A stretch of 32,000 nt of DNA, taken from an uncultured archaeon. GTDB lineage: Archaea; Asgardarchaeota; Thorarchaeia; Thorarchaeales; Thorarchaeaceae. A model generated the notes under the pieces. It was not told the origin of the DNA and did not search any database. It saw nothing but the letters and a program-made list of their open reading frames with translations. The stretch covers positions 1-32,000 of the forward strand of contig CAZYLT010000009.1 of the NCBI GenBank assembly GCA_964648855.1, read 5' to 3'. Positions 1 to 17,669 of the stretch are shown here, piece after piece. The position numbers were made by a program, and so were the translations under genes. Each line of letters begins with the position of its first letter. The stretch's first letter is position 1.

Positions 1-25
1 GTTGATAGACAATTGTTCATTGGGC

Positions 26-802
26 ATGGATATTCCCTTTCTTCGGGATTCACTTCTGCAATACAGAGGCTAGTCACCACCTGTTCCTGTATGCGAGTGG
101 TTTCAATTCCCTTTCTTCGGGATTCACTTCTGCAATGTTTGTCGCGAATTCACAAATCCAAGAGTTCGTTACTCTTGGGGGGTTTCAATTCCCTTTCTTC
201 GGGATTCACTTCTGCAATAAACTCAAGGCCTGGTATTGCAGGCATATTAGCCTGTTTCAATTCCCTTTCTTCGGGATTCACTTCTGCAATTGTGACCAGA
301 TATTGGAAGTCTCCGAAGATATTTGAGTTTCAATTCCCTTTCTTCGGGATTCACTTCTGCAATGCAATCATCAGCGACCACCACCACATGGGTTAGGTGT
401 TTCAATTCCCTTTCTTCGGGATTCACTTCTGCAATGGGATGCTGAACTAGCTTTCAGCCTTAAATTGGATAAGTTTCAATTCCCTTTCTTCGGGATTCAC
501 TTCTGCAATTCACGGAAAGGTTGTTTTACAAGGCGGAAGATTTAAAGTTTCAATTCCCTTTCTTCGGGATTCACTTCTGCAATTTTGCTTGGTTTAATGG
601 TTCAGTCTATGGCTCTGAAGTTTCAATTCCCTTTCTTCGGGATTCACTTCTGCAATAAGATTTTGTTTTGGAGATTACGAAAAACCAAATGGGTTTCAAT
701 TCCCTTTCTTCGGGATTCACTTCTGCAATTTGTATTAAATCCTAATTCTCTTCCAGCGGCTCCATGTTTCAATTCCCTTTCTTCGGGATTCACTTCTGCA
801 AT
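26..802 (-). CRISPR. CRISPR array: 11 repeats (10 identical, 1 degenerate trailer) and 10 spacers of 35-45 bp
   Basis: The repeat GTTTCAATTCCCTTTCTTCGGGATTCACTTCTGCAAT (37 bp) starts at 100, 182, 254, 327, 399, 473, 547, 620, 693 and 766, with a degenerate copy at 26-62. The reverse complement ends in the classic Cas6 handle ATTGAAAC, preceded by a TCCC/GGGA stem. With the degenerate repeat at the left end, this indicates minus-strand transcription. Confidence 0.99.
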
Positions 803-1081
803 AGCCCATCAAACATATCAATTTTGCCCATACGAGCCCGCATAACTCCGCTTCCAGGCATGCCATGCGATGCCCCCTCAAACTCGCTCTCATTTATAAA
901 GGGCATCGCAACTCGATAATTTTCATCAGTATAATAAGAAAAATTGACAGTTGGGGTTAGAAGACACATTTGTCCGGCACACCGTTGGATGTCAATACGC
1001 CGAGTTGATACAAGCTCAAAAATGTTATACACGCTCCACACTCTGAAAGTCCTGCTACATGGTGGGCATTGAGGCTTAATA
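803..1081 (-). promoter_or_regulatory. CRISPR leader / divergent promoter region between the array and cas6
   Basis: Non-coding region next to the intact end of the array. It has a TATA-like TTTATAAA at 893-900, an AT-rich tract at about 915-950, and a 10-bp inverted repeat at 866-875/901-910. Confidence 0.75.
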
Positions 1082-1942
1082 ATGATAGGACTGCGCTTTC
1101 ATATAACTAGTCCAATGAAGTTGGACTTGGGTTACACTGGTAGGCCTCTACGCTCTTGGTTCTTAAAGACGGTACAGGACTTCGACCCCGAGCTTAGTAG
1201 TGAGATGCATGCCCAACAAACAATTCGCGATTTTGTTGTTGTCCCACTTCCGCACGATAATCATTTCAAGACCCATTTCAATATGGGCAGTGAATACACA
1301 TTTGGCGTTCGCCTTCTTCGAAAAAAGAGATTCGTTGAGCTCCTGAAACATATTCTGAATCTGAACTATCTGGAGCTTCGTTTACATAATCATGTAATGC
1401 CGATTCGTGCTGTTGACTATAGCATCGATGACCCCCATGAATTGATGAACCAATGGATCTCCTCACCAAATCTTGATGATGCATCTGCAGTACGAATAAG
1501 GATGGCTTTCAACACTCCCGTACAGCTCTCCAAGTCAGACACGGATGCACTTTGCATGTTCCCTCTCCCCGAGAAAGTATTTCCCTCTATTCTTCGCATC
1601 TGGCAGGATTTGGGGTATACGGGTTTCAGGTCGATTGAGGAGTATGTGGAATGGGTTCTCCAGAACGTCTATGTTGCGAGACACAAAACCAAGACAGTAC
1701 CTATAAGGATGGGACCTCACTTGACTGTGATCGGTTTTGTCGGGAAGGTTGAATACCTAGTTCACAATACTGAGTCAATCCCGGCAAAGATGACTGTGGG
1801 ACTGTCGAAGTATTCCGAGTTATGCAATCTTGGTAAGCATCGGACGGCCGGCTTGGGTTCCATATCCACACAGGTCTTTCTTGAGGAAGAATCTGGTGCC
1901 CAATCCCAGCTGCATTTTGTGGAGCCTGCATATCAACAATAA
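1082..1942 (+). CDS. cas6: CRISPR-associated endoribonuclease Cas6
   Basis: C-terminal glycine-rich loop LGKHRTAGLG, plus FPLPEKVFPSILRIW and GFVGKVEY segments typical of type I-D/III-associated Cas6. Adjacent to the array. Confidence 0.93.
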   Translation: MIGLRFHITSPMKLDLGYTGRPLRSWFLKTVQDFDPELSSEMHAQQTIRDFVVVPLPHDNHFKTHFNMGSEYTFGVRLLRKKRFVELLKHILNLNYLELRLHNHVMPIRAVDYSIDDPHELMNQWISSPNLDDASAVRIRMAFNTPVQLSKSDTDALCMFPLPEKVFPSILRIWQDLGYTGFRSIEEYVEWVLQNVYVARHKTKTVPIRMGPHLTVIGFVGKVEYLVHNTESIPAKMTVGLSKYSELCNLGKHRTAGLGSISTQVFLEEESGAQSQLHFVEPAYQQ

Positions 1943-2081
1943 GCTCTAGGCGGGATATACGTGGGTTTGAAGAGGGGAGTATAGCCAATCCAAGAACTGT
2001 GAAAAAAACCAAGAGTCGAGTGACTCAGGATAAACCGTGGTTAGTAAGCCATATAATAGAATAGTACGATGGGACACAGAA

Positions 2082-2786
2082 ATGACGCAAGAGACCCATG
2101 TAGTATACATAGCGACCGTTGGCAGCAGCATAGAGCCCATTCAAAGAGGAATATTCTATGCCTCCCCTGATGTTGTTTACTTGCTTTATGGTTCCAACCC
2201 TCGAATGAAGCAAAGAAATCCTCGAATCGTTGCTGCCAGCGTCAGAGAAAATGTCAAAGCCTTTGGTCTGAAAGAAGTTACACTAAAGGAAATCGACCCA
2301 TTCTCACTAGAGAGTGTGATGACAGAATTCATTGGCATCTGGCAGAATCATGCGAATGATAAGATAATCGCAAACATGACTGGCGGTACGAACATAATGG
2401 CATCTGCCTGTCTGCTTGCAGGTTTTACTATTTCCGCCAAAGTCATTTATGTTAGAGAGCTAGAAAAAGGCGAAGAAGTCCCGCTGGAAGAACAAGTCAT
2501 CACATTGCCAACCCCTAGAATCCCATTTTCCGCTTTGAGCGAAGAAAAGCAACAGATTCTGAGGTTTATCTTCAAGGAAACAGAGGCGGGCAATACTCTA
2601 CTTGAGAAGGCAAATTGCAAAATCGCAGACCACTTGAAGATAACACCGCAAACTGTTTCATATCACGTTAAACGAATGGAACGGAGCGAGCTCATACGAT
2701 GTCAAAAGAAGGGCCGGAATTTGCGTGTGGGACTAACTCCGTCAGGTCTGCTCTTTGCTCGAATGCTTGAGAAATCAACCCAATGA
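2082..2786 (+). CDS. Csa3-like CARF-domain/winged-HTH transcriptional regulator
   Basis: N-terminal Rossmann-like CARF motifs (VYIATVG, IANMTGGT) and a C-terminal wHTH (IADHLKITPQTVSYHVKRME...LTPSG). ATG 2082 is the preferred start; the ORF is open from GTG 2037. Confidence 0.85.
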   Translation: MTQETHVVYIATVGSSIEPIQRGIFYASPDVVYLLYGSNPRMKQRNPRIVAASVRENVKAFGLKEVTLKEIDPFSLESVMTEFIGIWQNHANDKIIANMTGGTNIMASACLLAGFTISAKVIYVRELEKGEEVPLEEQVITLPTPRIPFSALSEEKQQILRFIFKETEAGNTLLEKANCKIADHLKITPQTVSYHVKRMERSELIRCQKKGRNLRVGLTPSGLLFARMLEKSTQ

Positions 2787-2797
2787 TACCGCATTAC

Positions 2798-2840
2798 ATT
2801 TCGATAATATGTCGAAATTTAAGCCGATTCACTTTATAAT
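2798..2840 (+). promoter_or_regulatory. Palindrome ATTTCGA-N7-TCGAAAT followed by TATA-like TTTATAAT, upstream of the helicase cassette
   Basis: Inverted repeat at 2798-2818 and TTTATAAT at 2833-2840, both read directly. The function is inferred. Confidence 0.4.
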
Positions 2841-3105
2841 GTTAGTCAATAAATGTCCTTTATGAATTCAGATAGCCCCGCAAAGAGGGTCGGTAGACAT
2901 AATCATTCCTCTGGAATTCTTAATTCAACGGGATTGTTGCTGCTATACAAACAAAGAACCTACAAATATACTGAATCCATCAGGCTGATTCGTCTATGGG
3001 AGGGTTCTTCCAAGTTGTTACCTAAAGGTGAAGCGAAGAAGCGACAATTGAAGTTAAATCATCTTTCTTGCGACATTCTGTCTGCTCCTTCTCAGAAATG
3101 CATTT

Positions 3106-5856
3106 TTGAAGATTTTGGAGGTGCAACAAGTGGCTGGCTTTGACCCACGCCAGCTTCGTTCCTCAGTAATGGCATACCGCAACCTTCCTGATGTAAAGAC
3201 TACAGATGACTGTTATTACCAGATGCTACGTGTCTCGTTGGGTCTTAAAGATATCATTGAGTATCTAGACCATACCATATACAGCTTTGAGAAAAAATAT
3301 GCAGCACTAAAGGTGCAACTGAATAACCGAAGTGTTCGCGAGTATGTCCGTAGGAACCACAAAAATGCTACATGGGCACGAATCATCAGTGTGAATTCCG
3401 ATGAGAGTGGCAATTGGAAAAAATTGCTTCAAAGGGGCATTTCATTGCTGTCACCTGATGAGGTCAGGAACTCAGATCCGTATCAGGAAAGAATACCGCT
3501 TCAAATGCCTGAAAACCTGAAAAAGCTACTCCGCACCAAAAGGGAGCAATTCAGCTTCTTAGGGTATCCTATTGAGATTCTCGATTTCCATGAATCACAC
3601 AACATGATTCTACTTGCTGAAGTTCCGGAAGCAGCTTTCGGCAATGAAAGGAAGAGGTTTCGGCTCTTCTATATCCCCTCAACGTATCAGTGGAGGAGAT
3701 ATCGTGAAGCGCTGTACAATTTCATAAATGAGCCCTCCAAGAATCTTAATCCTTTGTTGAATCTGTTCCAGAGAACCTCCTCTGTGAAATGGCCCGACGT
3801 TCCTAGTACCAGATTCAAGAAGAGCGACTGGTTGTTTCTTAAAGACCAAGATAATCCGTCCACAGAGAAGCAGCGTAGATTTGTGAGAAGAGCTGTTAAG
3901 ACTCCGGATTTCGCCCTTCTCTGGGGGCCACCAGGAGCAGGCAAGACTTACACGATAATGGAGCTGATCTACCAAGCAGTAAGGCGAGGGATGAGGGTGC
4001 TCTTCTGTGCTTCTACTCATGTTGCCATCGACCAGGCATTGGAACGGCTATTGACAGAACCCAAGGCGCTAGAAGAGATAGTTCCATTGAGGATTGGCGC
4101 GTCTGAAAAGATTAGCAGTTTGATTAGAGATTACCAGCTGGAGCGAATTGCCCCGCATTATAGAAAGGAGATTGTGGATGAACTAAGCGCCAAATCGAAT
4201 CGAAGCAAGGCACAAAATCAGTGGCTTAGAACCTTGAATTCTGAGGATGGAAAGAGCTGGGTGGACAGGATGCTGGTTGAGTCAGCAAATCTAGTCTGTG
4301 GAACGACAGTTGGGATATTGCAGCATCCCGAAATTAAGGGCGCCAGTCATTCGGAATCAAAGCCTGTTTATGATATTCTCATCATAGATGAGGCAAGTAA
4401 GACCACCTTTCATGAGTTCTTAGTTCCTGCGCATTTCGCACAACGTTGGATTCTTTGTGGTGACCCCCGACAGCTTTCACCTCATGTTGATGCAGATAGC
4501 ATTGCGGCTACTATAAAGACGCTACTGGATAACCAAGAACAGAGAGATTGTTGCATTGATATCTACTCAGTGGCTAAACAGCATAGATATCCAATTCAGC
4601 TCCTATTGATATCTGATGACGAAATCAAAGGAAATCTTTACAATTTACAGGCGGAGAGCAAAGGGCTCCATACCTCCATGTTGGATGACGATACTGATTT
4701 GGGAAACAAAAAAATCTTGACCGAAATATTGTCCTCTTCAGTCATTATCAGTGACGAATCGAAGGCAAAGACAATATCCAAATATTTGCCTGGCTCAATA
4801 GAAATGATTCGAGGCAATCAATCACTTCTTGGACCAGAGTTCAAAGCCAAGCGTGAATATCTAAGAAATCAGGGTCAACTATGGACTCCAAGAGAAAGAA
4901 ACTGGGAGTTAGAGCTTTCGATTATTCTAGGTCAAGAGTTCTTCACCAGAACTACAAAAGACGGCTCTTTTGAAAAATATGGGGAGAGAAAGCAACTCCT
5001 GATTCCGGAATTCATTGAAGCAGATGAATTCGGTGAGAATCTGCAGCCTTCTACAAAATCTGCAGAACAATTTGAGGAGCAGCTGAACAGAGTACGGCTC
5101 TGCGCATACCCAAGCGTGCTGGAATTACTTGTTGAGGGCTTCCGTCCAGAGGCTGATTTTGATAGCACGCTGAACCGGGGATTTCCTGAAGATGCGCTAG
5201 AGAATCGGCTGATAAAATTGCAGTACCAATTTCGCATGCATCCTGAAATGTCATCTTTTCCTAGAACTCATATCTATGACTCAGAGCTGCTAAGAGATGC
5301 TCCGAATGTTGAAAGCAAACGAAGTTGGCCTTATCAAAGATACACAGAAAGGGCCATCTGGATGGATGTGACTGGTGATTGCGAAAATTATACCAACAAA
5401 GATGAAGCACATGCATTGGTCAAGGAGCTAAAAGAGTTCTTGGACTGGGCGGCACTAAATCCGCGACCAGATGGAGAACGCTGGGAAGTTGCAGTTCTTT
5501 CTTTCTATAACAACCAAATTGATTGCATTCTTCAACTCATCCAATCTGATAATACTCTGACCTACGACAAGTCAGACCTCTACACTGCTGTTAATGCTCA
5601 GATAAGAATAGGATCCGTGGATAGCATTCAAGGAAGAGAGGCTGATATTGTATTTATTAGCTTCGTGAGAAATGGATATTCCGGGATTGGTTTTCTCAAT
5701 AGCCCAAATCGTTTGAATGTTGCAATCACTCGTGGAAGATATCAGTTAGTACTAGTGGGCAACAAACGTGGTCTTGCAGAGCAAAATGAATCTGAATTGC
5801 TACGCCGACTAGCAGAGCTACCCGATGACACACCTTTTGGAGATGATGAGGAATGA
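3106..5856 (+). CDS. SF1 helicase, UPF1/DNA2/NAM7-like (AAA_11/AAA_12)
   Basis: Motifs GPPGAGKT, ASTHVAID, IIDEAS, GDPRQL, QFRMHP, SVDSIQGRE and NRLNVAITR. The start is uncertain (TTG 3106 or ATG 3169). Confidence 0.93.
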   Translation: MKILEVQQVAGFDPRQLRSSVMAYRNLPDVKTTDDCYYQMLRVSLGLKDIIEYLDHTIYSFEKKYAALKVQLNNRSVREYVRRNHKNATWARIISVNSDESGNWKKLLQRGISLLSPDEVRNSDPYQERIPLQMPENLKKLLRTKREQFSFLGYPIEILDFHESHNMILLAEVPEAAFGNERKRFRLFYIPSTYQWRRYREALYNFINEPSKNLNPLLNLFQRTSSVKWPDVPSTRFKKSDWLFLKDQDNPSTEKQRRFVRRAVKTPDFALLWGPPGAGKTYTIMELIYQAVRRGMRVLFCASTHVAIDQALERLLTEPKALEEIVPLRIGASEKISSLIRDYQLERIAPHYRKEIVDELSAKSNRSKAQNQWLRTLNSEDGKSWVDRMLVESANLVCGTTVGILQHPEIKGASHSESKPVYDILIIDEASKTTFHEFLVPAHFAQRWILCGDPRQLSPHVDADSIAATIKTLLDNQEQRDCCIDIYSVAKQHRYPIQLLLISDDEIKGNLYNLQAESKGLHTSMLDDDTDLGNKKILTEILSSSVIISDESKAKTISKYLPGSIEMIRGNQSLLGPEFKAKREYLRNQGQLWTPRERNWELELSIILGQEFFTRTTKDGSFEKYGERKQLLIPEFIEADEFGENLQPSTKSAEQFEEQLNRVRLCAYPSVLELLVEGFRPEADFDSTLNRGFPEDALENRLIKLQYQFRMHPEMSSFPRTHIYDSELLRDAPNVESKRSWPYQRYTERAIWMDVTGDCENYTNKDEAHALVKELKEFLDWAALNPRPDGERWEVAVLSFYNNQIDCILQLIQSDNTLTYDKSDLYTAVNAQIRIGSVDSIQGREADIVFISFVRNGYSGIGFLNSPNRLNVAITRGRYQLVLVGNKRGLAEQNESELLRRLAELPDDTPFGDDEE

Positions 5857-6968
5857 GCAAGAGCGAGAAAATGAATTTCAGTAGAGAATTAACGGTTCAC
5901 ATATGGGATATTAGGCTGTCCATCCAGACATATGAAGAACATCCTGTGTGGTTGGCAATACTTCAGCTTGCTCATGAAAATTCTGACGTTGTGAATGCGA
6001 AGCTTGTTCACAAGGAACTTCTGGCTGAGAAGACACCTCTGCTCCAGGCAGAGCTATTATTGAATCGGGTTTACAAAGAAGGGCTTCTTGACAAGAATTA
6101 TTGTCTAACTGATGATGGTGTCGATGCATTGGATAAGGAACTAGTGCCAACTAGATTGACCGGAATGTTCACTGTAAGCTTCGTGGATGACCCGTTAATA
6201 CCCCAAGTCATCCTGTCTATTGATGGCCCTCATGAAGCCAGATTGGATGGCAGGGAATTAGGGCATAAAGGAGGAGCTAGATATGAAATCAATGGCACTC
6301 GAGAGGTTCCTAACCTCATCGAACAAGTCGTAGATTATCCGATCTTGTTGAAAGAAACCTCTGAATCAGTACTAGTTAAAGATGTTGACAGATATGGCCT
6401 TCCACAGAATACTTCCAGATGTGACTTAACCCTTCAAATAGGTGTCAATAATGAACCAATTTTACGAATAGGAAAGCCAGTGGATAGAAGATTACCATTG
6501 CCGGAGAGTTTTGACATTAGCTACAAGAAGGCATTGGACTTGTTGCTTAGCACACTAGGCGAAGATTGGCAAAGGACGCGAGAAATTATCCTCGTGGAAT
6601 TCGAAAGCACCAACTCAACGGAAAGAAGGGCCTTTCGGAAATCATTCAAAGTAAGCAAACCTGAGCTTCCCAATTTCGGGTCTTTTCGAAGCATGAAAAC
6701 TCCCGCTGTGGATATTGAACCCAGGAGCAAAACTGATGCGAGCAAGTGGTATTACTGGTTGATAGTTGATGAGCTTCCGAATCAGTACCTTCGACAATCT
6801 GCATTCACCAAGCATGCGTCTGATACGCGAAAGAAATTCCCGAAGAAGTTCGAGATTAAGATACCAAAGCAAGAGGAAGTTGCGAAGACTCTCTTCGAGC
6901 GGGATGAAACAAATAAGGCCTGGCTGCTTCAGGCTCCCCTCGACTTGCTACCGGGTGATGCAAGATGA
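5853..6968 (+). CDS. Uncharacterised 371-aa protein with a probable N-terminal winged helix
   Basis: Long ORF with ATGA overlaps to both neighbours. The segment ELLLNRVYKEGLLDKNYCLTDDG resembles a wHTH recognition helix and wing. Confidence 0.8.
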   Translation: MSKSEKMNFSRELTVHIWDIRLSIQTYEEHPVWLAILQLAHENSDVVNAKLVHKELLAEKTPLLQAELLLNRVYKEGLLDKNYCLTDDGVDALDKELVPTRLTGMFTVSFVDDPLIPQVILSIDGPHEARLDGRELGHKGGARYEINGTREVPNLIEQVVDYPILLKETSESVLVKDVDRYGLPQNTSRCDLTLQIGVNNEPILRIGKPVDRRLPLPESFDISYKKALDLLLSTLGEDWQRTREIILVEFESTNSTERRAFRKSFKVSKPELPNFGSFRSMKTPAVDIEPRSKTDASKWYYWLIVDELPNQYLRQSAFTKHASDTRKKFPKKFEIKIPKQEEVAKTLFERDETNKAWLLQAPLDLLPGDAR

Positions 6969-8458
6969 CCAACCCATTTGTTCAGGACAGGACTAAGCTG
7001 GTATCACAAATAGACCAAACCATTGGCCCCGCGTGGTTTTCGCGAGATTCTGACAACTGGGAAAAAGAAACCAGCCCCCCGGTTTTGATAGGGGGTCATG
7101 GAGGTGGCACGCTAAAATCGGAGATACTGGATATTGTCGCAGGGGCTGAGCAAATTATAGCGATATGTTCATTTTTGATTGGTGATGATAATTTGATTGA
7201 AAGTATCTTGGATGCCGCTAGGAGGGGCGTCCGTGTTTACATTCTTACTGCCTCCAAGGACCGCATTGCTCAGGACAACTTGGCGGAGGGGTCTTTGCAG
7301 AAAAAGGTGCAGATAGAAAATGAGCAAATGTTGAATAAAATCTGTCGAAAGACGCTCCTCCGTGATGCCCAGGTTCATGCCAAGTTCATCTTGTCGGACC
7401 CTGCCAAAAAGACACGCAAAGGAGTCCTATCTACGGCAAACTTCACTTACCATGCTCTTCTTCATCCTGAAATGGGTCTAACTCTAGGTGATGACCAGAT
7501 TGAGGAACTCTTCATGGTTTTCTGTTCGGCTTGGTGGGACCTCGGTGAAAGAGAATTGCTGAAACCTAATATGCTGACAGACGCACGCAAAATTGAACCA
7601 CCAGTTTCAGGAGAGGTATCCAAGATAATCAATAATCTCCAAGCTTTCGCTCTAACGTATCGCAATAGAGTAACGAAATTGAGGTCGGAAATAAGCCGTC
7701 TAGTGTTGAATGCTCAGGACGAATTATTTCTTGCCACCTACGGGGTATCAGATGATGATCCGATATTCGAAGATATTCTTGCCCAATCATCGGTGAAAAA
7801 TGTCAAAATCCTTGTCAGACCTCGGGTAAAGACGACTCCTTTGTTGCACCAACTTAAAGAGAATGGCGCTGAAGTCAGAGGTTTGGACGATTTGCATGCG
7901 AAAGTTGTGTGCACAAAGACAAGTCGGGGTGTTGAGGCTCTTCTCATGACCGCAAACCTTGAGAAAATAAGTCTTCAACAGGGTTTTGAGGTTGGCCTGT
8001 TAACCAGTGGTTCTATTGCTGAGCAGATTATTGAACTCATGGACCATTGGTGGGAGAACGCCAACTGGGAATACTCGATTTCTAGGAAACTAGGAGAACA
8101 TTTAGGACCATATCGGGTTCTCAAACAGAATGAATTTGACGAACGAGAGGTAATTGAATCAAAAACCCTACCTCTTGGAGAAATAACTATTGAAGACCTA
8201 TCGATGCTCGATTCATTCATGCCAGATTTTCCGAAAGTGGATGACGTACAAAAGGTGGAATATAGTTGGAGAACCATTCCTAGAGAACTTCCTAAGAAAT
8301 GTAAGTCTTACAATATCGATAATTTGGCTCCATACATAGACGTCTGGAAATGCAGGAAGAATCAGATTTTCATTAGTGTATCCAGCCCCGAAGAGCTTTC
8401 ATCTGTTCTTGATACAGAAGACCTGCCCAATGTTCCCATTGTGTATCGTGCCAAATGA
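6965..8458 (+). CDS. Phospholipase D-superfamily protein with two PLD domains, putative nuclease
   Basis: Motifs HAKFILSD...STANFT and HAKVVCTK...MTANLE, plus AARRGVRVYIL. No signal peptide is evident. Confidence 0.88.
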   Translation: MTNPFVQDRTKLVSQIDQTIGPAWFSRDSDNWEKETSPPVLIGGHGGGTLKSEILDIVAGAEQIIAICSFLIGDDNLIESILDAARRGVRVYILTASKDRIAQDNLAEGSLQKKVQIENEQMLNKICRKTLLRDAQVHAKFILSDPAKKTRKGVLSTANFTYHALLHPEMGLTLGDDQIEELFMVFCSAWWDLGERELLKPNMLTDARKIEPPVSGEVSKIINNLQAFALTYRNRVTKLRSEISRLVLNAQDELFLATYGVSDDDPIFEDILAQSSVKNVKILVRPRVKTTPLLHQLKENGAEVRGLDDLHAKVVCTKTSRGVEALLMTANLEKISLQQGFEVGLLTSGSIAEQIIELMDHWWENANWEYSISRKLGEHLGPYRVLKQNEFDEREVIESKTLPLGEITIEDLSMLDSFMPDFPKVDDVQKVEYSWRTIPRELPKKCKSYNIDNLAPYIDVWKCRKNQIFISVSSPEELSSVLDTEDLPNVPIVYRAK

Positions 8459-8597
8459 TTCTTAGTGCTCGGATGCTTAACACGGTTGGAGGGTCATATG
8501 TTTGGAGGTATAATCAGGCGGAAAAAGGAAACGATAGCTACCTTCCAACGAGCAACAGTTATATTTTCAAACAAAGAATAAACATAAAGTGTTCCTA

Positions 8598-8753
8598 ATG
8601 TGCAAGAAAAAAGAAAAAATAGAAGGTCTAGAGGAGGCGGTTTACGAAATGGGTGCAAAATCTCATGGTATCGACACTGAAGGTCTCTCACACAAAAGAA
8701 TCAAGGAAATTGTTGATGCTCGGGATAGAGATAAAATCGATTATTCTTATTGA
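8598..8753 (+). CDS. Putative 51-aa small protein (not in the ORF track)
   Basis: ATG 8598 to TGA 8753 encodes MCKKKEKIEGLEEAVYEMGAKSHGIDTEGLSHKRIKEIVDARDRDKIDYSY. The composition is protein-like and it lies in an otherwise empty 460-bp gap. Confidence 0.45.
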   Translation: MCKKKEKIEGLEEAVYEMGAKSHGIDTEGLSHKRIKEIVDARDRDKIDYSY

Positions 8754-8918
8754 TTCGAGTTTTTGATGCCAAATCAAAATGAAAAATTAGGCCTACTGGT
8801 ATGTAAGCCCCTCGGCGGTATTCGATATTAAGTCTTGATGAGTAAATGAAATCTTGTTTCATGTATGCTATCGATATTCGCGTAATGGGCTATTGGAATG
8901 ACCCCACGTAGTGTTCTT

Positions 8919-11243
8919 TCATTGAGTGGAACGAACCTGCCCGTCTTCAACTTCAATGATGTGATCAATGTATTCTTCCAAACCTTCAACATGGCTAATT
9001 ATGATTATTTGCTCGAAGCTTTCAGAAAGCACCGTATTTGTTAGATTCATAATTCCCTCTCTTCTGATCATGTCACTGCTTCCAAGTGGCTCATCAAGAA
9101 AGAGAAAATCTGGTTTCACATATTTCCTAAATGGCAATAAGGACAGCGCGAATGCTATCCTCATTGCAAGGAGGAATTGGTCTTCCGTACCGCCGCTAAA
9201 CATTTCCTTCTCCTGGAATTCACCTGCGTCCTCACTCCAAACCTCAAGATTGTAGTCATCCACCAGTCGGACTGCTTTGTAGCGGTTGTCTGTAATGACT
9301 GGCAGGATTTGTTGCATATGTCGCTCAACACTCGGTCTAACTCTCTGCCTCAAATTCCTGCTTGTTTCTTCCAGGGCCTCTTTGACTATTCCTGAGACCT
9401 CAGCCTCTTCTATCAAATGCTTGACTTTAGCAACTTGTTCATTATATTTTTCATGTACTCCTTCATGATCCCTCAGATATTCTTCTAGTTCTCCAATTCT
9501 GATTTTTAGTCCCTTGATTTCTTGCTTTAGACCTGCAGCTCTTGCCGTTAGTGAAGTGACCTCATCTTGAGTATTTTCAAGCAGTTCTTTGGAGAATTCA
9601 ATCGATTTTGGCAGTTCTGGAAATATTACTTCTGTAAGCTCATCTTGCTTCTTATCCTTCTCTCTTTCCAAGCTAGATATTTCAGTTTGTATTTCTGGTT
9701 TCTCATCGAGCTGCTCATCGATTTGCTTAATCCTAGAATGGAGATTCTTCCTTTTCTCGGCAGTGTCTTCATATTTCTCCAAAATATCTGAAATCACGTC
9801 AATATTCAGTTCGGCATGCTCCGGCTTCAACTCTGAAGGAAGCTTCGAAATTTTCGGTTCGATACTATCTATCTCAGCCTCCAATTCTCCATTTATCCTG
9901 GTAATTTCTTCTCGAATGTCCAGAAGCGAATCCCACTGTGCTTTTTGTCGCTCCTTCTGTTTGAGGTACTTGAGGTTTTTCTCGGAAAGACTGAGTTTTC
10001 TGAGATATCGGTACAGCAAATACACCATAATAATGACAAATGGGATGGAACCAAGAATCAGAAGTTGGTTGATTGATACCCCCAATATTAGGCAGATGAC
10101 GGTAAAAAGGGCTGAAACGCCAATCATTCTCAAATTAATCGATGAGGATATTATCTCCTGTTCATGAGTAGTGGGTTTCAAATTCTCGGCTTCTTTCTTT
10201 TCTTTTTGCCACCCATTCTTTTGCTTCGCTTCACTCTGCGTGACAATCCTCAGTTCCTGCTCCAATCCTTCATAGCTGGACTTTGCCTCTTCTATCTGTG
10301 GAATCTCAGGAGTGGCTGATCGAATGTATTCAAGTTCGTCAAAATCAGCTTGTATTTCCTTTCTCTCAGTTTCCAGATCTGCTAACTTATCGAGGCGCTT
10401 TTCGTGAATATCGATTTGCTTCTTTATGCTCTCAATTTCTCCGTTTATAGAATCTTGTTTTTCCCTCGCGTCATCATACTTCTCTAATCTCTTAAGGAGA
10501 GATTGTTTTTCGTCTAATTCAGCTCTGGTACTCTTGAGTTGCTTTTTCAGGTCCTCTACCGATATTATTTTTTCGTTCTTCTCCCCCATGAATTCGTCAA
10601 ATTGGTCACGTGCCTGTAGCAGCGTTTCTTTCTTATTCTCCTCTGAATCAATTTTTCCTCCTCCAGCCTCTCTCTTGCCAAGAAGAATCCGCCTGATATC
10701 TTTCACTCTGTCAAGAATCTTATTGAAGTGCTCAAGATTAAGAAAGACATTGATGATGTCCTTCCTTTTTCCTGCCCTCAACTCAACAAGCTTTCCCAAC
10801 TCCTTCTGAGCAACGATGCAACTCGAAACCAACTCGTGATATGAAATATCACCCATAAGTTGCATAACGGTTTCATTTACTTTAGTAACAGACTGGACTC
10901 CCAATGGCTTGGATTTGCGATTTGGCAAGATCTCATCTATTCTTGACTTGCTAGACCGTTTGCTTGATCTAAATATCTCCCTTGTGACTTGGAAGGTTCT
11001 ATCGCCGATTTGAAATGTAAGCTGAACAAAAGCTCGTGAGGAATTGTGTTCAATCAACTTCGCATGAGCCGGATTTGTTGTTGGTCGAAGAACGTATGTA
11101 TAGAGTGCGTACAGTATAGCCTCCATTATGGTCGATTTTCCGCTTTCATTTAGCCCTCGAATCAGTGTGACCCCTTTCTCAAATTTCACTGTTTCGTCAC
11201 GGAGCGATTTGAAATTAATAGCGCGGAGTTCCTTAAGAATCAA
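8919..11243 (-). CDS. rad50: Rad50/SbcC-family ATPase; no zinc hook, central hydrophobic hairpin
   Basis: Walker A GLNESGKST, long coiled coils, signature FSGG, Walker B/D-loop LFLDEPLGSSD and H-loop ISH. Lies downstream of mre11. Confidence 0.9.
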   Translation of the reverse strand: MILKELRAINFKSLRDETVKFEKGVTLIRGLNESGKSTIMEAILYALYTYVLRPTTNPAHAKLIEHNSSRAFVQLTFQIGDRTFQVTREIFRSSKRSSKSRIDEILPNRKSKPLGVQSVTKVNETVMQLMGDISYHELVSSCIVAQKELGKLVELRAGKRKDIINVFLNLEHFNKILDRVKDIRRILLGKREAGGGKIDSEENKKETLLQARDQFDEFMGEKNEKIISVEDLKKQLKSTRAELDEKQSLLKRLEKYDDAREKQDSINGEIESIKKQIDIHEKRLDKLADLETERKEIQADFDELEYIRSATPEIPQIEEAKSSYEGLEQELRIVTQSEAKQKNGWQKEKKEAENLKPTTHEQEIISSSINLRMIGVSALFTVICLILGVSINQLLILGSIPFVIIMVYLLYRYLRKLSLSEKNLKYLKQKERQKAQWDSLLDIREEITRINGELEAEIDSIEPKISKLPSELKPEHAELNIDVISDILEKYEDTAEKRKNLHSRIKQIDEQLDEKPEIQTEISSLEREKDKKQDELTEVIFPELPKSIEFSKELLENTQDEVTSLTARAAGLKQEIKGLKIRIGELEEYLRDHEGVHEKYNEQVAKVKHLIEEAEVSGIVKEALEETSRNLRQRVRPSVERHMQQILPVITDNRYKAVRLVDDYNLEVWSEDAGEFQEKEMFSGGTEDQFLLAMRIAFALSLLPFRKYVKPDFLFLDEPLGSSDMIRREGIMNLTNTVLSESFEQIIIISHVEGLEEYIDHIIEVEDGQVRSTQ

Positions 11244-12396
11244 ACCTTGAAACCTCCTCCATCAACTCAATACATTTGCTCTTTGCTTGCTCTACAATCG
11301 CCCTTGAATCCTCATCCATATCCTTCATTTTGGCATCGAAATAGGACAGAAGTTCCTCATCGGGGTCAATGGCTGAAATAGGTTCAATATCCCTTACCCC
11401 CTCCACCTTCAGAGAATCAGTATCTTCCAGAATGACTCTGAAGCAGAGATCATCACCCATTCTCTGTAATTTGGATCTCTTATATGTGGCAAGAGTTTCA
11501 ACAGCCACAACTCCCTCAATCCTTATTCTTAGAATAAGCTCTGGATTTGCGACCTCCTCAATCTCTTGTTCTACAATGTTTGTAATATTGTCTCCATCTT
11601 TTACTTTTATGAGAAGTGTCTTCATTTCACGGCAGTTGAGAGGAATCCGTTTGACTTCCGGTATTTCATTATCTTCGAATTCAAGAATAGTGAAGCTCTT
11701 CTCTCCTCCTTCTTCATTAAAGCTCACTCTCTCGGTGCTTCCAGGAATGACTACCAAAGAATCCCCAATTCGTTTGTGCTGAGCGGAATGATAGTGTCCA
11801 GCTGCTATCAGTTGATACCCGACAGGAATCTGATCAGGTGAAACAGTCACTTCATCACCTATGAATCCACTAAAGCCAATAATCGGATAATGAAGCAGCA
11901 ATATGTTCAAATCCCCATCAGGAGGGGGCATTTCCACATCCAACGGATTATCTTCTGCCTGTAGTGTTGGATTGAAACCTATCCCGACCACTCGGACTCT
12001 CATTCCATCCACTTGGATGTCCACTGCCCTAGGTTGTGATGGATTTTCAAAATATGTCACATTGCCAGATTCCCCGTGAGTTTGCAAAGGGGAAACGCCC
12101 GTAACAATGCTCCTAGGTGTATCATGGTGCCCTGTGACAAGAAAGGATGACGCCCCATTCTCTTTAAGTCGTCGGAACTGTTTCATTACCCAGGCTCTGG
12201 TGGAATTACTAGGCCGATTGTGGTCGAAAAGATCTCCGCAAATAAGGAAAACATCAACTTCGTTTTCAATGGCATATTCAACGATGGTTTTGAAGTTCCT
12301 TTGATAATCACGTTGTCGCTCGTTTTTATTCGTACCAAAGTTCTTGCTGGGACTATCCAAATGATTATCGCCCGTTATGAGTATCTTGACAGTCAT
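11233..12396 (-). CDS. mre11: Mre11/SbcD metallophosphoesterase nuclease
   Basis: Motifs GDNHLD, GDLFD, GHHD, LLLH, GHYH and PGSTER, plus operon context. Confidence 0.93.
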   Translation of the reverse strand: MTVKILITGDNHLDSPSKNFGTNKNERQRDYQRNFKTIVEYAIENEVDVFLICGDLFDHNRPSNSTRAWVMKQFRRLKENGASSFLVTGHHDTPRSIVTGVSPLQTHGESGNVTYFENPSQPRAVDIQVDGMRVRVVGIGFNPTLQAEDNPLDVEMPPPDGDLNILLLHYPIIGFSGFIGDEVTVSPDQIPVGYQLIAAGHYHSAQHKRIGDSLVVIPGSTERVSFNEEGGEKSFTILEFEDNEIPEVKRIPLNCREMKTLLIKVKDGDNITNIVEQEIEEVANPELILRIRIEGVVAVETLATYKRSKLQRMGDDLCFRVILEDTDSLKVEGVRDIEPISAIDPDEELLSYFDAKMKDMDEDSRAIVEQAKSKCIELMEEVSRFDS

Positions 12397-14033
12397 TCTA
12401 CTTCATCTCCGAATGCTCCAGTAAAGGCGCTTGAATTGGATGTAGTTTCATCAATTTCCCTGTCTATCGACACTTCCCGCCTAGCCGATTTCAATGCCTC
12501 AACAACGTCGATATCTGCTCCCCCCTCGTGTGTTTTCCGCTTTCGAATCTTTATCATGACTGGGGCCTTGCTGACTGGACCCAAGACCACTGCCTCGCCT
12601 GGATTGAATCCCGGCAAATTCTTCAGCATGCCCTCGCTCATTCTCTCTGAGCTCCTGATGACCGCTTCTTGGTCTTTTGGATTGGTTAATTTCATTATGA
12701 TTTGACTATTGCACTGTGAGAGCGTATCTGGATGGATTTTCGATGGCCGCTGAGATATTACAATAAGAAAAATGCCGAATTTGCGCCCCTCAGCAGCGAT
12801 TCTCTTGATTATGGGACTTGAACGAGTTGTATCGTTCGCTGGTATGAAGTTGTGGGCTTCTTCTATCACCACGAAAACAGGATGAGCATATTCACCATTC
12901 AGTAGTGCGTGATATGTATCGCTCAACAATTTTGATACAATGTAGTCCGTGCTAAACGCATTGAGTCCCGAAAGATCCATGATTGATACCTGCATTGGGG
13001 AAAGAATTCTCTCAGTTGGGGTCGATGTACTACTGAAGACCCTCATCCGTGACAATATGCGTACATATCTCAATGCAGATTGGATCGGTGATTTTTCGCT
13101 TTGCTTATCTGCTGATTGGAGATTCTCTTCCAACTTGCTCACCAAGTCCTGCGGAGAGAAAATCGTGTCTGAATCGCGAAGCTCCTGTAATGCCGTTGAT
13201 ACCGTTTCCCTGATTACTTTGTATCCTTCCTGAATGTTGGCAATTCGAAAAATCTCTTCATCCGATAAATCTGAGAATGCTATGGTGTAATCCTCCATAT
13301 TGCCCACATCCTTTTCACTATAGCGTCCAGTGCTTGCGGGGTTTCTGAATACAACCAATCTATCGCTTAATTCATGTCTTGATTTGTCTACACTCATTCC
13401 CATGAGGGCATAATCGGCATGTGGGTCAACGACAATTATGCTTCCCCCCTTTTCCAGTAGCTCCTCAATCAGGACTCCAGCACAATAGCTCTTTCCTGCT
13501 CCCGTCTGAGCTATAATTGCCATATGCCTTCTTAGTCCCGAAACAGTCAGACCCACAGAAACCCTAGGCCGAGTAATGAGATTTCCAACTGTCAGTGACT
13601 CATCACGAGGATAAGAGTAGAATTTCTCCAGGAAATCTCTCGGTGCGGAATAAACCTCGGTCCCTGGCGTGATAGAACGCCGTGGGATTAAGACATCTGA
13701 TGTGATAGGATGTATATAACCCAATACCTGCGCAGACCCGTATGTTCGAAGGTCACCAATATTTGCTTCTTGAATCTTCGTGAGCGCTTCAAAGCTCACC
13801 AGATGCTTGAGCGCATCGCTCGATGACATGACTGCTTCGACTTGAGCTAGAACATCAGTTTCCGTGATTTTTTCATCAATCATTGCTTCTGACTTAACTA
13901 TCAGGTAGTCAAGTTTCGACGGACAAAGATCTTTAGTAGACGAAAAGACAAATGAAGTTGAAGTTGTTTCACCTACAACAATTCCTATTCGTTCGTTTTC
14001 ATGGATAGTAGACACGGCTGTAACCCCGCTCAA
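12393..14033 (-). CDS. herA: HerA ATPase/DNA translocase
   Basis: N-terminal HAS-barrel-like region, Walker A AQTGAGKS, VDPHADY, EEAHNF and EGRKFG...SQRP. Confidence 0.94.
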   Translation of the reverse strand: MSGVTAVSTIHENERIGIVVGETTSTSFVFSSTKDLCPSKLDYLIVKSEAMIDEKITETDVLAQVEAVMSSSDALKHLVSFEALTKIQEANIGDLRTYGSAQVLGYIHPITSDVLIPRRSITPGTEVYSAPRDFLEKFYSYPRDESLTVGNLITRPRVSVGLTVSGLRRHMAIIAQTGAGKSYCAGVLIEELLEKGGSIIVVDPHADYALMGMSVDKSRHELSDRLVVFRNPASTGRYSEKDVGNMEDYTIAFSDLSDEEIFRIANIQEGYKVIRETVSTALQELRDSDTIFSPQDLVSKLEENLQSADKQSEKSPIQSALRYVRILSRMRVFSSTSTPTERILSPMQVSIMDLSGLNAFSTDYIVSKLLSDTYHALLNGEYAHPVFVVIEEAHNFIPANDTTRSSPIIKRIAAEGRKFGIFLIVISQRPSKIHPDTLSQCNSQIIMKLTNPKDQEAVIRSSERMSEGMLKNLPGFNPGEAVVLGPVSKAPVMIKIRKRKTHEGGADIDVVEALKSARREVSIDREIDETTSNSSAFTGAFGDEVE

Positions 14034-15336
14034 ATACTATTCTTGTTCCCAATTCTCTTTCAAGAGTCTGCCGATATAAATTATCGACCGTTTGACGCCC
14101 CAAACGGGCAATCTCATCGGCACGCTTAAGCCAAATATTGTAGTTCTGAAGCCCACCATACCCTCCTCTCAGAACACTCAGCACCTCATCTACGTTGCAA
14201 TTCATTCTTTCTGGCTTGGGTGGTTCCCATATTTTGGTGTCAATGCCCACCATCCATCCTGGTATGTCAACTCGAAGCGGTGTATCTTGCGGATGTAGTT
14301 TTATGTGGAATGAAACTATTGCAGGTAGGTCCCGCAATTGAGTCAGGATTTTCGTAGCCTTCATCTTGAACTCGGCCTCGATTTCCGACTCCGCCAATGC
14401 CATTTTGAATCGGGTTCTTAGATACTTGGTAGGTTCCCGAAATGAATTAGCAAGAGAAAGCCTTGTGTTTTTCATCATACTGAGGACAAGTGGACTAGTA
14501 TATCCCCTACCACGAAAGAGCAATTGAATCAACACATGATCCGACAGACTATCCGTAGCCAGCTTAACAAGTTGCATGATTCTGCTTTGAACCGGCTTTT
14601 TGTGATCGGATAATTTGGTTTTTAATGCAGATATATCGACTTGCTCTCTCTTGGCACTCAGTACTGCTTCTTGTATGTGATCTACCGACTCCAAGCTAAG
14701 CCTCGTGTTTGAGTTCTTCAATACTTTATGAATTGTATCTAGAAGTGTAAAACGCAGGAAGTGTCTAGCCCGACTATCCTTGCTAACTGCGATTATTCCG
14801 ATATCGTTCTCTCTGCAATACTGAAGCAGTTCTAGTGTTGTTTCGAAGTAATCGAGCAGGCAGAATCGATCATTGCTAATGCCAGATTCAACTGGTAGAT
14901 GCTGCAGCCTTCCAAAGAGGGAACCATCCAGAAGCAGCCATTCTCCTCCCTCGTTTCTTAGAGCTTGAAGGGCAGCGGCATGTTCTATGGTTTCCATTTT
15001 AATCGAAACATACCATGCTAGTTCCTGTTCTCTCACTCTTGCGGGAGCAAAACCAGTATCCAGTACACGTGTTTTCGAGTTCTCCTGCAATGCGATTGCT
15101 CTGACTATCCACCATAGTCGGCCGTCCCATAGGGTGCGCGTTGCTAAGCTACCATCTGTTCCGATAACACCCTTTGCAGGTTTTTCGTCTTTATCATCCA
15201 ATGGATTCCAGTGGGATAATGCATTCTCTCTAATCGTGTCAAGCTTGTACTTGTTAATACTTCCGTCCATCTCCTCGCTCCAAATCTTTTGCTTGGACCT
15301 AACAATTTCTACGAGTTCGCTCAAATATTCTGGCAT
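13999..15336 (-). CDS. nurA: NurA nuclease
   Basis: Acidic motifs GTDGS and LLDGS, plus VSKDS. Immediately upstream of herA. Confidence 0.88.
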   Translation of the reverse strand: MPEYLSELVEIVRSKQKIWSEEMDGSINKYKLDTIRENALSHWNPLDDKDEKPAKGVIGTDGSLATRTLWDGRLWWIVRAIALQENSKTRVLDTGFAPARVREQELAWYVSIKMETIEHAAALQALRNEGGEWLLLDGSLFGRLQHLPVESGISNDRFCLLDYFETTLELLQYCRENDIGIIAVSKDSRARHFLRFTLLDTIHKVLKNSNTRLSLESVDHIQEAVLSAKREQVDISALKTKLSDHKKPVQSRIMQLVKLATDSLSDHVLIQLLFRGRGYTSPLVLSMMKNTRLSLANSFREPTKYLRTRFKMALAESEIEAEFKMKATKILTQLRDLPAIVSFHIKLHPQDTPLRVDIPGWMVGIDTKIWEPPKPERMNCNVDEVLSVLRGGYGGLQNYNIWLKRADEIARLGRQTVDNLYRQTLERELGTRIVFERGYSRVYYP

Positions 15337-15683
15337 TGTTCACCCACCACGCATGAAACTTGTGCGCTACGGTTGGAGAATAGCACTTGTGGCAATAAAG
15401 TTACTTCACTCGGAGTATGCGAGCTCATTGGGTCAGACTGATATCTTCCTTATGCCAGAGTTGCTTCTGTTTTCCGAGCTAAGTCAATATAGGAAACATA
15501 CTTTCAGATATCTCTCTGGGTGGTTAGTGTGTACTCCATAGGACTCCATGACTGAGGAAGATACTAGTCCTAGATATTGGAGTTCGATAACTGCATCGTT
15601 GAGCGAATTGGGTTCTCGTCGATGCACCGACCCCAAAGATTACTTACAAACAGCTCGGAGCTGGGGCAGGCGCGAGAGAAAGG

Positions 15684-17669
15684 ATGTCAGACTTCAAGCT
15701 ACATGCACCGTTCGAACCTACCGGTGACCAACCACAGGCGATTGATAAACTAGTGCAGGGTATCGAAGACGGACATCGCTTTCAAACATTGCTCGGCGTC
15801 ACCGGTTCCGGAAAGACCTTCACTATGGCCAATGTGGTTGAGAAATACAATCGACCAACGCTGGTTATCTCACATAACAAGACTTTGGCTGCTCAATTAG
15901 CTTCTGAATACAAGCAATTCTTCCCTACGAATGGAGTAGAGTATTATGTTAGCTATTATGACTGGTATGTTCCAGAGGCCTACGTGCCATCGAAGGACAT
16001 GTACATCGAAAAAGAGGCTGACATCAATGCCGAGATTGAGCGGCTCCGCCACTCGACAACGCACGCTCTTCGGTCCCGAAGCGATGTGCTGGTTGTAGCC
16101 TCAGTGTCCTGCATCTACGGAATCGGAAATCCAGAGGAATATGATCACTTCAGGATGTTTCTTGAGGTTGGTAGAGAGATAGACCGTAGAACTCTGCTCG
16201 AACGGCTGGTTGAGATGCAGTATGACCGGAACGATATGGAGGTTGAGCCGGGCGTCTTCCGCGTTAGAGGTGACGTGATTGAAGTCCAACCTGCTGCATC
16301 AAGGAATAGGGTACGCATAGAGCTCGATGGAAACATGATTGACCGGTTGTCTATCATTGATTCTATCTCGTCGAAGCGTCTGTCTAATGAACACTGGTTT
16401 GAGCTGTATCCGGCCCGACATCACATGGCTCGATATGAGAAGGTGATGGCGGCACTGGATCCCATAGAACAGGAAATGGAAGAACGTGTGGAGAAACTAA
16501 AGAAACAAGGCAAGCTTGTTGAGGCTGACCGATTGCGGAGACGCACGCTCTATGATATGGAGATGTTGCGAGAGACTGGTCATTGCCAGGGGATTGAGAA
16601 TTATTCGCGTCATATCGATGGGCGGTCAGAGGGCCAGAAGCCCTATACACTCCTCGATTACTTCCCTGACGATTTTCTCATGATTATCGATGAGTCTCAT
16701 ATGACCATTCCCCAAATCGGCGGAATGTATCATGGAGACCGCTCGAGAAAGCAAAACCTGATTGATTACGGATTCAGACTGCCATCTGCTTTCGATAATC
16801 GCCCAACGAGGTTTGAAGAGTTTGAGAACTACATGCAACATGTCATCTTTACCAGTGCAACTCCTGGTAAATATGAGAGAAAGGTGAGCACACAGATTGT
16901 TGAGCAGCTTCTGCGACCTACTGGACTGGTGGATCCTGAGATTACAGTGAAGCCAATCGAGAACCAGGTTGACAGTCTAATTGCTGAGATAAACAAGACA
17001 GTTGGTCAAGGACACCGAGTTCTTGTCACCACACTTACGAAGAAGACTGCGGAGATGCTAACAGAGTATCTAATTGAAGCCGGAGTGATGGCTCGTTATC
17101 TCCACTCGGACATAGGTACTGTGGAGAGAATCCAGATTATCAGAGAGCTTCGTCAGGGCAAGTTCGATGTACTGGTTGGTATCAACCTCCTACGTGAGGG
17201 CTTGGACCTTCCCGAGGTTGGCTTAGTCGCAATCCTAGATGCTGACAAAGAAGGCTTCCTACGAACAGACTGGGCGCTCATTCAGACTATGGGTAGGGCA
17301 GCACGGAACATAGATGGCCGTGTGCTTCTCTATGCAGACCATGTATCATCCGCCATGCAGTCGGCAATAGACGAAACAAATCGAAGACGCAGATATCAAA
17401 TGAAGTACAATGAAGAACAGAATGTAACACCTCAAAGCATCAAGAAGGAGATCAAAGACATCGCACAGTCAATGCCAGTCAAGCTAACGAAGAAACAGAC
17501 GAAAGTGACTGATTATGACCCCGTCGAAGTGGATGAAATGACGGACTACATACTGGAACTTGAAGAACAGATGAAAGAGTCAGCTCGGAACCTTGAGTTC
17601 GAGAAGGCTGCAGCCTTGCGAGACAAGATTGCAGGGCTACGAAAGCAAATCGAGGACTTTCAACAATGA
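15684..17669 (+). CDS. uvrB: Excinuclease ABC subunit B
   Basis: GDQP, GVTGSGKT, the beta-hairpin YYDWYVPEAYVP, DESH, GINLLREGLD and a C-terminal UVR domain. Confidence 0.98.
   Translation: MSDFKLHAPFEPTGDQPQAIDKLVQGIEDGHRFQTLLGVTGSGKTFTMANVVEKYNRPTLVISHNKTLAAQLASEYKQFFPTNGVEYYVSYYDWYVPEAYVPSKDMYIEKEADINAEIERLRHSTTHALRSRSDVLVVASVSCIYGIGNPEEYDHFRMFLEVGREIDRRTLLERLVEMQYDRNDMEVEPGVFRVRGDVIEVQPAASRNRVRIELDGNMIDRLSIIDSISSKRLSNEHWFELYPARHHMARYEKVMAALDPIEQEMEERVEKLKKQGKLVEADRLRRRTLYDMEMLRETGHCQGIENYSRHIDGRSEGQKPYTLLDYFPDDFLMIIDESHMTIPQIGGMYHGDRSRKQNLIDYGFRLPSAFDNRPTRFEEFENYMQHVIFTSATPGKYERKVSTQIVEQLLRPTGLVDPEITVKPIENQVDSLIAEINKTVGQGHRVLVTTLTKKTAEMLTEYLIEAGVMARYLHSDIGTVERIQIIRELRQGKFDVLVGINLLREGLDLPEVGLVAILDADKEGFLRTDWALIQTMGRAARNIDGRVLLYADHVSSAMQSAIDETNRRRRYQMKYNEEQNVTPQSIKKEIKDIAQSMPVKLTKKQTKVTDYDPVEVDEMTDYILELEEQMKESARNLEFEKAAALRDKIAGLRKQIEDFQQ

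Follow-up and report, generated by a model that had tools for sequence, protein, structure and literature searches.

Introduction

Can a Rad50 protein do without its zinc hook, and if so, what takes the place of the hook at the tip of its long coiled coil? The apex of Rad50/SbcC is usually defined by the zinc hook, which is thought to be necessary for the closure of the arms and the sensing of DNA ends. In the 32,000-nucleotide stretch of archaeal DNA analysed here (the window), an operon for DNA end resection includes a rad50-like gene that an earlier reading, made from the sequence alone, took to encode a protein without the hook and with a transmembrane hairpin in its stead. In the first half of this article, we describe the protein, its apex and its relatives. 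In the second half, we consider what such a protein may do in this genome and elsewhere, and compare it with the systems already named.

A Rad50 Gene without a Zinc Hook

The gene (Table 1) starts with a TTG codon, with a GGAGG run upstream, and overlaps the stop codon of mre11 by 11 nt. The product has a split ABC ATPase head, in which Walker A, signature, Walker B and H-loop are all found, and the H-loop histidine, H751, is invariant in the alignment of 55 homologues. The AlphaFold2 model (mean pLDDT 83, pTM 0.50) shows a long antiparallel coiled coil of helices 197-355 and 393-650. Foldseek places Mre11-Rad50 structures among the top matches of this model, the head of which folds like solved Rad50. 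The ESM Atlas offered generic AAA_23/AAA_27 clusters only for the Rad50, and unnamed clusters for its apex. C142 and C384 are the only cysteines of the protein, which lacks a CxxC motif, exactly as the sequence-only reading had stated, and the zinc hook domain (PF04423) is matched in this genome by two other Rad50s only, those on contigs C10 and C29. A single hairpin resembling a terminator is found on the minus strand at 8810-8789; a promoter scan gave matches at chance level only, and an Rfam search of the window gave no match.

Table 1. Features of the window, in window coordinates.
Feature	Position (nt)	Strand	Details
CRISPR array	32-802		11 repeats of 37 nt
Island context outside the operon	32..8458	+	CRISPR array, cas6, CARF-wHTH regulator, Mokosh-like cassette
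Mokosh-like cassette	3106-8458		helicase, 371-aa ORF of no assigned function, PLD nuclease; convergent with the operon
rad50-like ORF	8919..11243	-	774 aa; hookless Rad50/SbcC-like ABC ATPase with apical hydrophobic hairpin
Walker B (FLFLDE)	9090..9107	-	aa 713-718, then D-loop; largely invariant in 55 homologues
ABC signature (FSGG)	9189..9200	-	aa 682-685; largely invariant in 55 homologues
Apex hairpin	10011..10127	-	aa 373-411; two uniformly hydrophobic helices, turn at N392 (sequence, AlphaFold2)
Walker A (GLNESGKS)	11133..11156	-	aa 30-37; largely invariant in 55 homologues
mre11	11233..12396	-	387 aa (Pfam, NCBIfam)
herA	12393..14033	-	translocase, 546 aa; Walker A and B visible (Pfam, NCBIfam)
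nurA	13999..15336	-	nuclease, 445 aa; DGS motifs visible (Pfam)
uvrB upstream region and 5' end	15477..15963	+	copy on contig C1; probable right island boundary

The Apex Hairpin as a Candidate Membrane Anchor

At the apex, two hydrophobic helices followed by basic residues had been claimed, and hydropathy, the AlphaFold2 model and the homologues all bear this out. The segment singled out in that claim corresponds to aa 373-416 (nt 10127-9996); its uncharged core consists of 39 residues without Asp, Glu, Lys or Arg, and R412, R415 and K416 follow on the C-terminal side. Kyte-Doolittle 19-mer values peak at 2.52 (aa 373) and 2.17 (aa 393) and stay at or below 1.26 in the rest of the protein. 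In the model, a helix at 371-391 is joined by a one-residue turn to a second helix, 393-466, which enters the returning arm of the coiled coil. With mean hydrophobicities of 0.77 and 0.88 and hydrophobic moments of 0.13 and 0.05, the two helices of the hairpin, apolar over about 19 residues each, are non-amphipathic, and their apparent insertion energy on the Hessa scale is about -1, compared with +20 to +29 for helices of the arms. The best 40-mer hydropathy is 2.16, against 0.29 or less in 11 hook-type controls (including the plasmid tblastn matches H1, H2, H10, H19 and H22-H24), in which the longest uncharged stretch covers 7-19 residues. The hairpin lies at a relative position of 0.44 along the arm region, and the hooks at 0.42-0.51.

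The same architecture is found in full-length homologues at 54% and 52% identity. A hydrophobic mid-segment occurs in 120 of the 120 closest homologues and CxxC in none of them, counts that, like those from the profile search below, show conservation and not the frequency of the hairpin among all Rad50s, since the sets were retrieved by a similarity that includes the hairpin. Named members of this set come from Thorarchaeota, Caldarchaeum, Bathyarchaeia, Nitrososphaeria and Thermoproteota. A profile search against 1.8 billion representatives returned 1,895 matches at 1e-30, and among 124 full-length proteins taken from its new top matches (about 580 to 1,390 aa long), the segment is present in 119, and a CxxC in the middle in none. 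In 124 non-redundant relatives, the median uncharged run is 39 residues, Gly or Pro stands near the turn in 94%, and 84% of the residues in the hairpin columns are apolar. Column identity in the hairpin is nevertheless only arm-like (0.37, vs. 0.68-0.76 in the heads). The net charge of the hairpin flanks is +3.4, with positive values in 96% of the relatives, whereas the arms average -0.8 per 20 aa.

Basic flanks, by the positive-inside rule, mark the cytoplasmic side of membrane helices. In other words, a hairpin that keeps its apolarity rather than its identity, between basic flanks, fits insertion into a membrane with both arms on the cytoplasmic side. From these signatures, the apex hairpin very probably inserts in the membrane, and Rad50 anchoring is, as a candidate, well supported by sequence. 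The membrane-anchored resection proposed by the sequence-only reading gains from the hydropathy, the modelled hairpin and the flank charges, although the location itself is something that we infer.

A Branch of the Rad50/SbcC Family

In a tree of the head domains, the hairpin proteins and the YhaN group lie on one side of a branch supported at 99/93 (46 rows) and at 89 (98 rows, quick tree), with every hook protein on the other side, in a sampling that is biased to hairpin proteins and includes nine hook rows. The window Rad50 belongs to a subclade apart from YhaN, with a long branch between the two and one Bacillus row in the tree. The AU test rejects a grouping of the window clade and archaeal hook Rad50 that leaves out YhaN (p-AU 0.0003, with only four archaeal hook rows) and one of the window Rad50 and YhaN that leaves out the other hairpin Rad50s (p-AU 0.006); both values are indications, as the groups were named after inspection of the tree, the branches are long and the hook sampling is thin. 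The phylogeny that had been proposed as a check thus separates the hairpin proteins from the hook type and leaves the window Rad50 outside the YhaN subclade. The likeness to YhaN that had been pointed out holds for the architecture, as a Bacillus YhaN in a yhaO-yhaN-yhaM context (from a chromosome filed among plasmids) has two membrane-type helices at its apex, but it does not extend to the subclade. Judged in this way, the window Rad50 is neither a member of YhaN nor a canonical Rad50, and is built like SbcE, the YhaN of Bacillus subtilis, with which it may well share an origin. The hairpin marks a large and barely described branch of Rad50, related to but separate from Bacillus SbcE.

It should be mentioned that a match to AAA_27 (PF13514) was considered as a sign of YhaN membership and rejected, because hook Rad50s and SMC proteins match equally: the window Rad50 scores 27.6 bits over aa 1-61 (61 of 206 positions) and a hook Rad50 28.5 bits, compared with 94.7 bits over 1-198 for YhaN. 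A profile comparison between the window family and YhaN aligned 74 columns only.

Our literature search found no paper on a membrane-anchored archaeal Rad50 or on a hairpin clade with NurA-HerA; the ABC ATPase classification of Krishnan et al. 2020, which lies outside this search, may already describe replacements of the hook by the membrane. The archaeal hairpin clade with NurA-HerA is apparently undescribed, whereas a hookless SbcC-like protein with a hydrophobic centre, SbcE, has been published, though not as a membrane anchor.

The Four-Gene Operon

The genes mre11, herA and nurA lie upstream of rad50 and overlap or abut, and Pfam and NCBIfam confirm the complete nurA-herA-mre11-rad50 operon that had been recognized from the sequence. 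In Mre11, the metal-binding motifs D10/H12, D55, H91/D92, H169 and H201/H203 are invariant in the alignment, with GHHD in place of the usual GNHD. The catalytic motifs of all four genes look intact, and ATP-dependent processing of DNA ends with Mre11 is predicted on this basis. At 11 four-gene hairpin loci, each gene is closer to its counterpart in the window than to the paralogue on contig C29 (for HerA, 47-61% to the window copy vs. 30-34% to that of C29). By these comparisons, the operon is a separate lineage of four co-inherited genes. Hairpin loci occur both in this four-gene form and in a two-gene form (mre11-rad50).

Copies in This Genome and the Probable Surrounding Island

The genome has four mre11-rad50 pairs, on C10 (hook), C29 (hook), C9 (the window operon) and C21 (hairpin, YhaN-like). 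The search for a second, hook-containing rad50, also proposed as a check, therefore yielded two, of which the C10 gene is the core copy of the family: among 85 relatives in the family, the C10 hook copy is present in 81, the C29 copy in 6 and the window operon in one (genome G360). These counts identify the hook-type C10 as the core system and the window operon as accessory. With two hook Rad50s, one of them the core copy, the window operon is not the housekeeping resection machine here. Of the two roles suggested earlier, chromosome tethering during repair is accordingly weakened in this genome, while the processing of incoming DNA is raised as a possibility. The coexistence of hook and hairpin systems in one genome shows that each type can have a job of its own.

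The other loci are as follows. The core locus (C10:59102-65614) comprises a 448-aa ORF without a NurA Pfam match, HerA, Mre11 and a short hook Rad50 of 693 aa, and C29:8627-15310 is a hook-type nurA-herA-mre11-rad50 operon of patchy distribution. At C21:19089-22141, a Mre11-like protein of 362 aa stands beside a 655-aa ATPase with two hydrophobic apex helices, whose place in the head tree is with Bacillus YhaN; its homologues number only 16, several of them from Asgard archaea. Many Thorarchaeia (L011, L013, L018, L019, L022, L026) have Mre11 with a Rad50-like ATPase of about 430 aa that has neither hook nor hairpin, and C26:12660-13082 may be a C-terminal remnant of such an ATPase. In addition, there is a stand-alone nurA-herA pair at C4:95021-97690, and at C2:163925-167515 and C1:87585-90977 an SMC-family gene is followed in each case by two small partner genes.

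To the left of the operon lies a defence-rich region (Table 1). Contig C42 overlaps the first 55 nt of the window exactly and has, at 3838-9073, genes for NYN, E2-like, ThiF/E1 and JAB proteins and then cas1-cas2, directly before the CRISPR array of the window; nine spacers of this array were tested and gave no other match in the genome. The uvrB 5' region recurs at C1:573-1061, at the start of that contig, with 90% identity, as a truncated copy of 93 codons followed by the same CRISPR repeat and leader. In a genome of the same genus, G001, the gene upstream of the C1 copy is on a contig that starts in the 5' end of uvrB. Positions 1-15600 of the window were not found in G001, which is 90% complete and whose assembly breaks at uvrB. 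These observations suggest that the operon is probably the last module of an island inserted at uvrB; the join between C1 and C42 is putative, and strain variation could mimic the duplication. A difference in GC content between the operon (41-45%) and the uvr genes (45-48%) was too small to use. On the other side, two tandem full-length uvrA genes are found in a uvrB-uvrA-uvrA-uvrC operon at 17666-23421.

The hairpin form has a different standing in another Asgard family, f12. Its orthologue is present in 19 of 19 genomes (completeness 72-91%), and in 18 of them it is the only Rad50 found with three queries, the hook type being present in one. The five f12 loci examined have the four-gene operon in conserved, non-defence surroundings. 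This pattern implies that the hairpin form can fill the housekeeping slot. Sporadic carriers elsewhere adjoin restriction-modification genes, CRISPR-cas and PIN toxin genes, or a HicA toxin gene, and other hairpin loci lie among housekeeping genes.

What the Operon May Do

The heads of Rad50 dimerise on ATP, Mre11 trims DNA ends, and HerA-NurA resects the 5' strand. Our main reading, to which we give a probability of about 70%, is that the window encodes such an Mre11-Rad50-HerA-NurA resection machine, in which a two-helix hairpin has taken the place of the zinc hook and holds Rad50 in the cytoplasmic membrane, and that it is a horizontally acquired extra copy here, most likely acting on DNA ends at the cell periphery. 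Both arms would lie on the cytoplasmic side, the hairpin entering the bilayer either by spanning it or by being wedged in its inner leaflet, and the head would reach some 25-30 nm into the cell, going by about 175 helical residues × 0.15 nm. The membrane would keep both apices of a dimer in one plane and so take over the linking role of the hook. The heads and Mre11 would capture DNA ends on ATP binding and pass them to HerA-NurA, so that ends would be processed close to the membrane. The substrate might be entering DNA, or breaks recruited to the periphery, leading to recombination or degradation, and in this genome the machine would work as an acquired extra copy beside the core hook-type system. 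The catalytic steps would follow from the known families, and the tether is what we infer. As for the substrate, what remains beside the readings as break repair and as defence or CRISPR may be the recombination of taken-up DNA, by analogy with SbcE, a protein found at the uptake pole, without which transformation falls 20-fold (PMC2811018).

The structural part of this reading has to be weighed against the view that the complex is cytosolic and the hairpin a soluble, hydrophobic and metal-free substitute for the hook in dimerisation. The hairpin does sit at the position of the hook, which is a dimerisation module interchangeable with an SMC hinge (PMC6969161), and SbcE foci are dynamic, being seen also on the nucleoid and moving from pole to pole within a minute, with no membrane localisation reported (PMC2811018), which also speaks against an anchor. 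Two further points weigh against the anchor: three plasmid-borne proteobacterial YhaN-family proteins (about 1,150 aa; L087, L088, L090) have neither hook nor hairpin at the apex, so the hairpin is dispensable in that branch, and the N-terminal flank of the window Rad50 itself is not basic, unlike the family average (no Lys/Arg and two Asp/Glu in the ten residues before the hairpin window, with R372 at the edge). However, the helices are hydrophobic on all faces, a four-helix bundle would not bury as many as 39 uncharged residues, the identity that a specific interface normally requires is not conserved here, and the basic flanks recur in nearly all relatives; we regard a soluble module as improbable. 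That the gene is an artefact of a frameshift, a chimeric assembly or bin contamination has a negligible chance, even though contamination of the genome, a metagenome bin, is estimated at 4.75%: the full-length homologues with the same hairpin, together with an adjacent UvrB 96% identical to that of a same-genus genome, refute it, and single Logan contigs from two runs, which may be the source samples, cover 8400-15563 with zero differences.

With respect to function, the operon might serve ordinary repair of chromosome breaks with a membrane tether, and be a redundant passenger of the island in this genome. Its genes are those of a canonical archaeal resection operon, its four-gene form contains the sole Rad50 found in most f12 genomes, it adjoins uvrB-uvrA-uvrA-uvrC, and SbcE backs up SbcC and RecN (PMC2811018). 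Against this, the genome is already equipped with two hook-type systems and another hairpin-type pair, and the uvr neighbourhood is not conserved at the other hairpin loci examined, so that we hold this explanation to be a serious one that falls somewhat short of even odds. We are more doubtful of a dedicated anti-virus or anti-plasmid system, or a helper of CRISPR adaptation, that would seize linear DNA ends during their passage through the membrane, to degrade them or make prespacers. Such a role would suit the CRISPR array, cas6, CARF-wHTH regulator and Mokosh-like cassette next to the operon, the cas1-cas2, E1/E2/JAB and NYN genes on the abutting C42, and the company kept by other sporadic carriers; moreover, Csa3a of Sulfolobus co-activates adaptation cas genes and herA/nurA (PMC5587795), and Lamassu evolved from SbcCD (PMC12663957). 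On the contrary, the f12 genomes have the operon throughout and away from defence genes, other loci have housekeeping neighbours, the operon lacks an effector gene and has no PADLOC model of its own, and it is convergent to the defence genes and not co-transcribed with them. Islands also gather unrelated cargo, and the neighbour lists given here are descriptive.

A large natural clade with the hairpin, being the sole Rad50 found in a whole Asgard family, makes testable the question of what the hook is needed for, and also whether end resection takes place at the membrane in prokaryotes. It may also account for the insolubility of the "unique central domain" in Bacillus SbcE. The novelty has limits, in that a hookless hydrophobic apex has a published precedent in SbcE and the trait is widespread, not special to this genome. 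A wider proposal, which at present we think unlikely to hold as a whole, is that a deep and widespread Rad50/SbcC branch, found in many archaea and bacteria and including YhaN as an offshoot, relies on the membrane in place of the zinc hook and, with NurA-HerA, forms a membrane-tethered resection machine that is the sole Rad50 system in some Asgard lineages and a mobile module of defence islands elsewhere, intercepting DNA ends at entry.

Comparison with Known Systems

The window Rad50 shares with canonical archaeal Rad50 (Pyrococcus, Methanocaldococcus, Sulfolobales; NCBIfam NF003034, NF041034) the split ABC head, the antiparallel coiled coil, the FSGG signature, the LDEP Walker B and the linkage to mre11, herA and nurA. 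It differs in that a hydrophobic hairpin replaces the CxxC hook, in that it is accessory in this genome, and in its equivalog scores of 120-137 bits against cut-offs of 700-1087. Its best PADLOC match is LmuB (5.5e-31), and like LmuB of Lamassu (PMC12663957), a DNA-end sensor derived from SbcC/Rad50 that is hookless in some cases, it is found in a defence-rich neighbourhood. The window operon, however, has Mre11, HerA and NurA and neither the LmuA effector nor LmuC; its Walker B glutamate is canonical, unlike that of LmuB, and PMC12663957 mentions no membrane hairpin in LmuB. There is also a likeness in design to SbcE/SbcF (YhaN/YhaO) of B. subtilis (PMC2811018), where a hookless SbcC-like ATPase with a hydrophobic centre is likewise preceded by a gene for an Mre11-like nuclease. 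The window Rad50 is set apart from SbcE by its Walker B, LDEP (DE) in place of IDDS (DD), and by its partners, which do not include yhaM and do include HerA and NurA.
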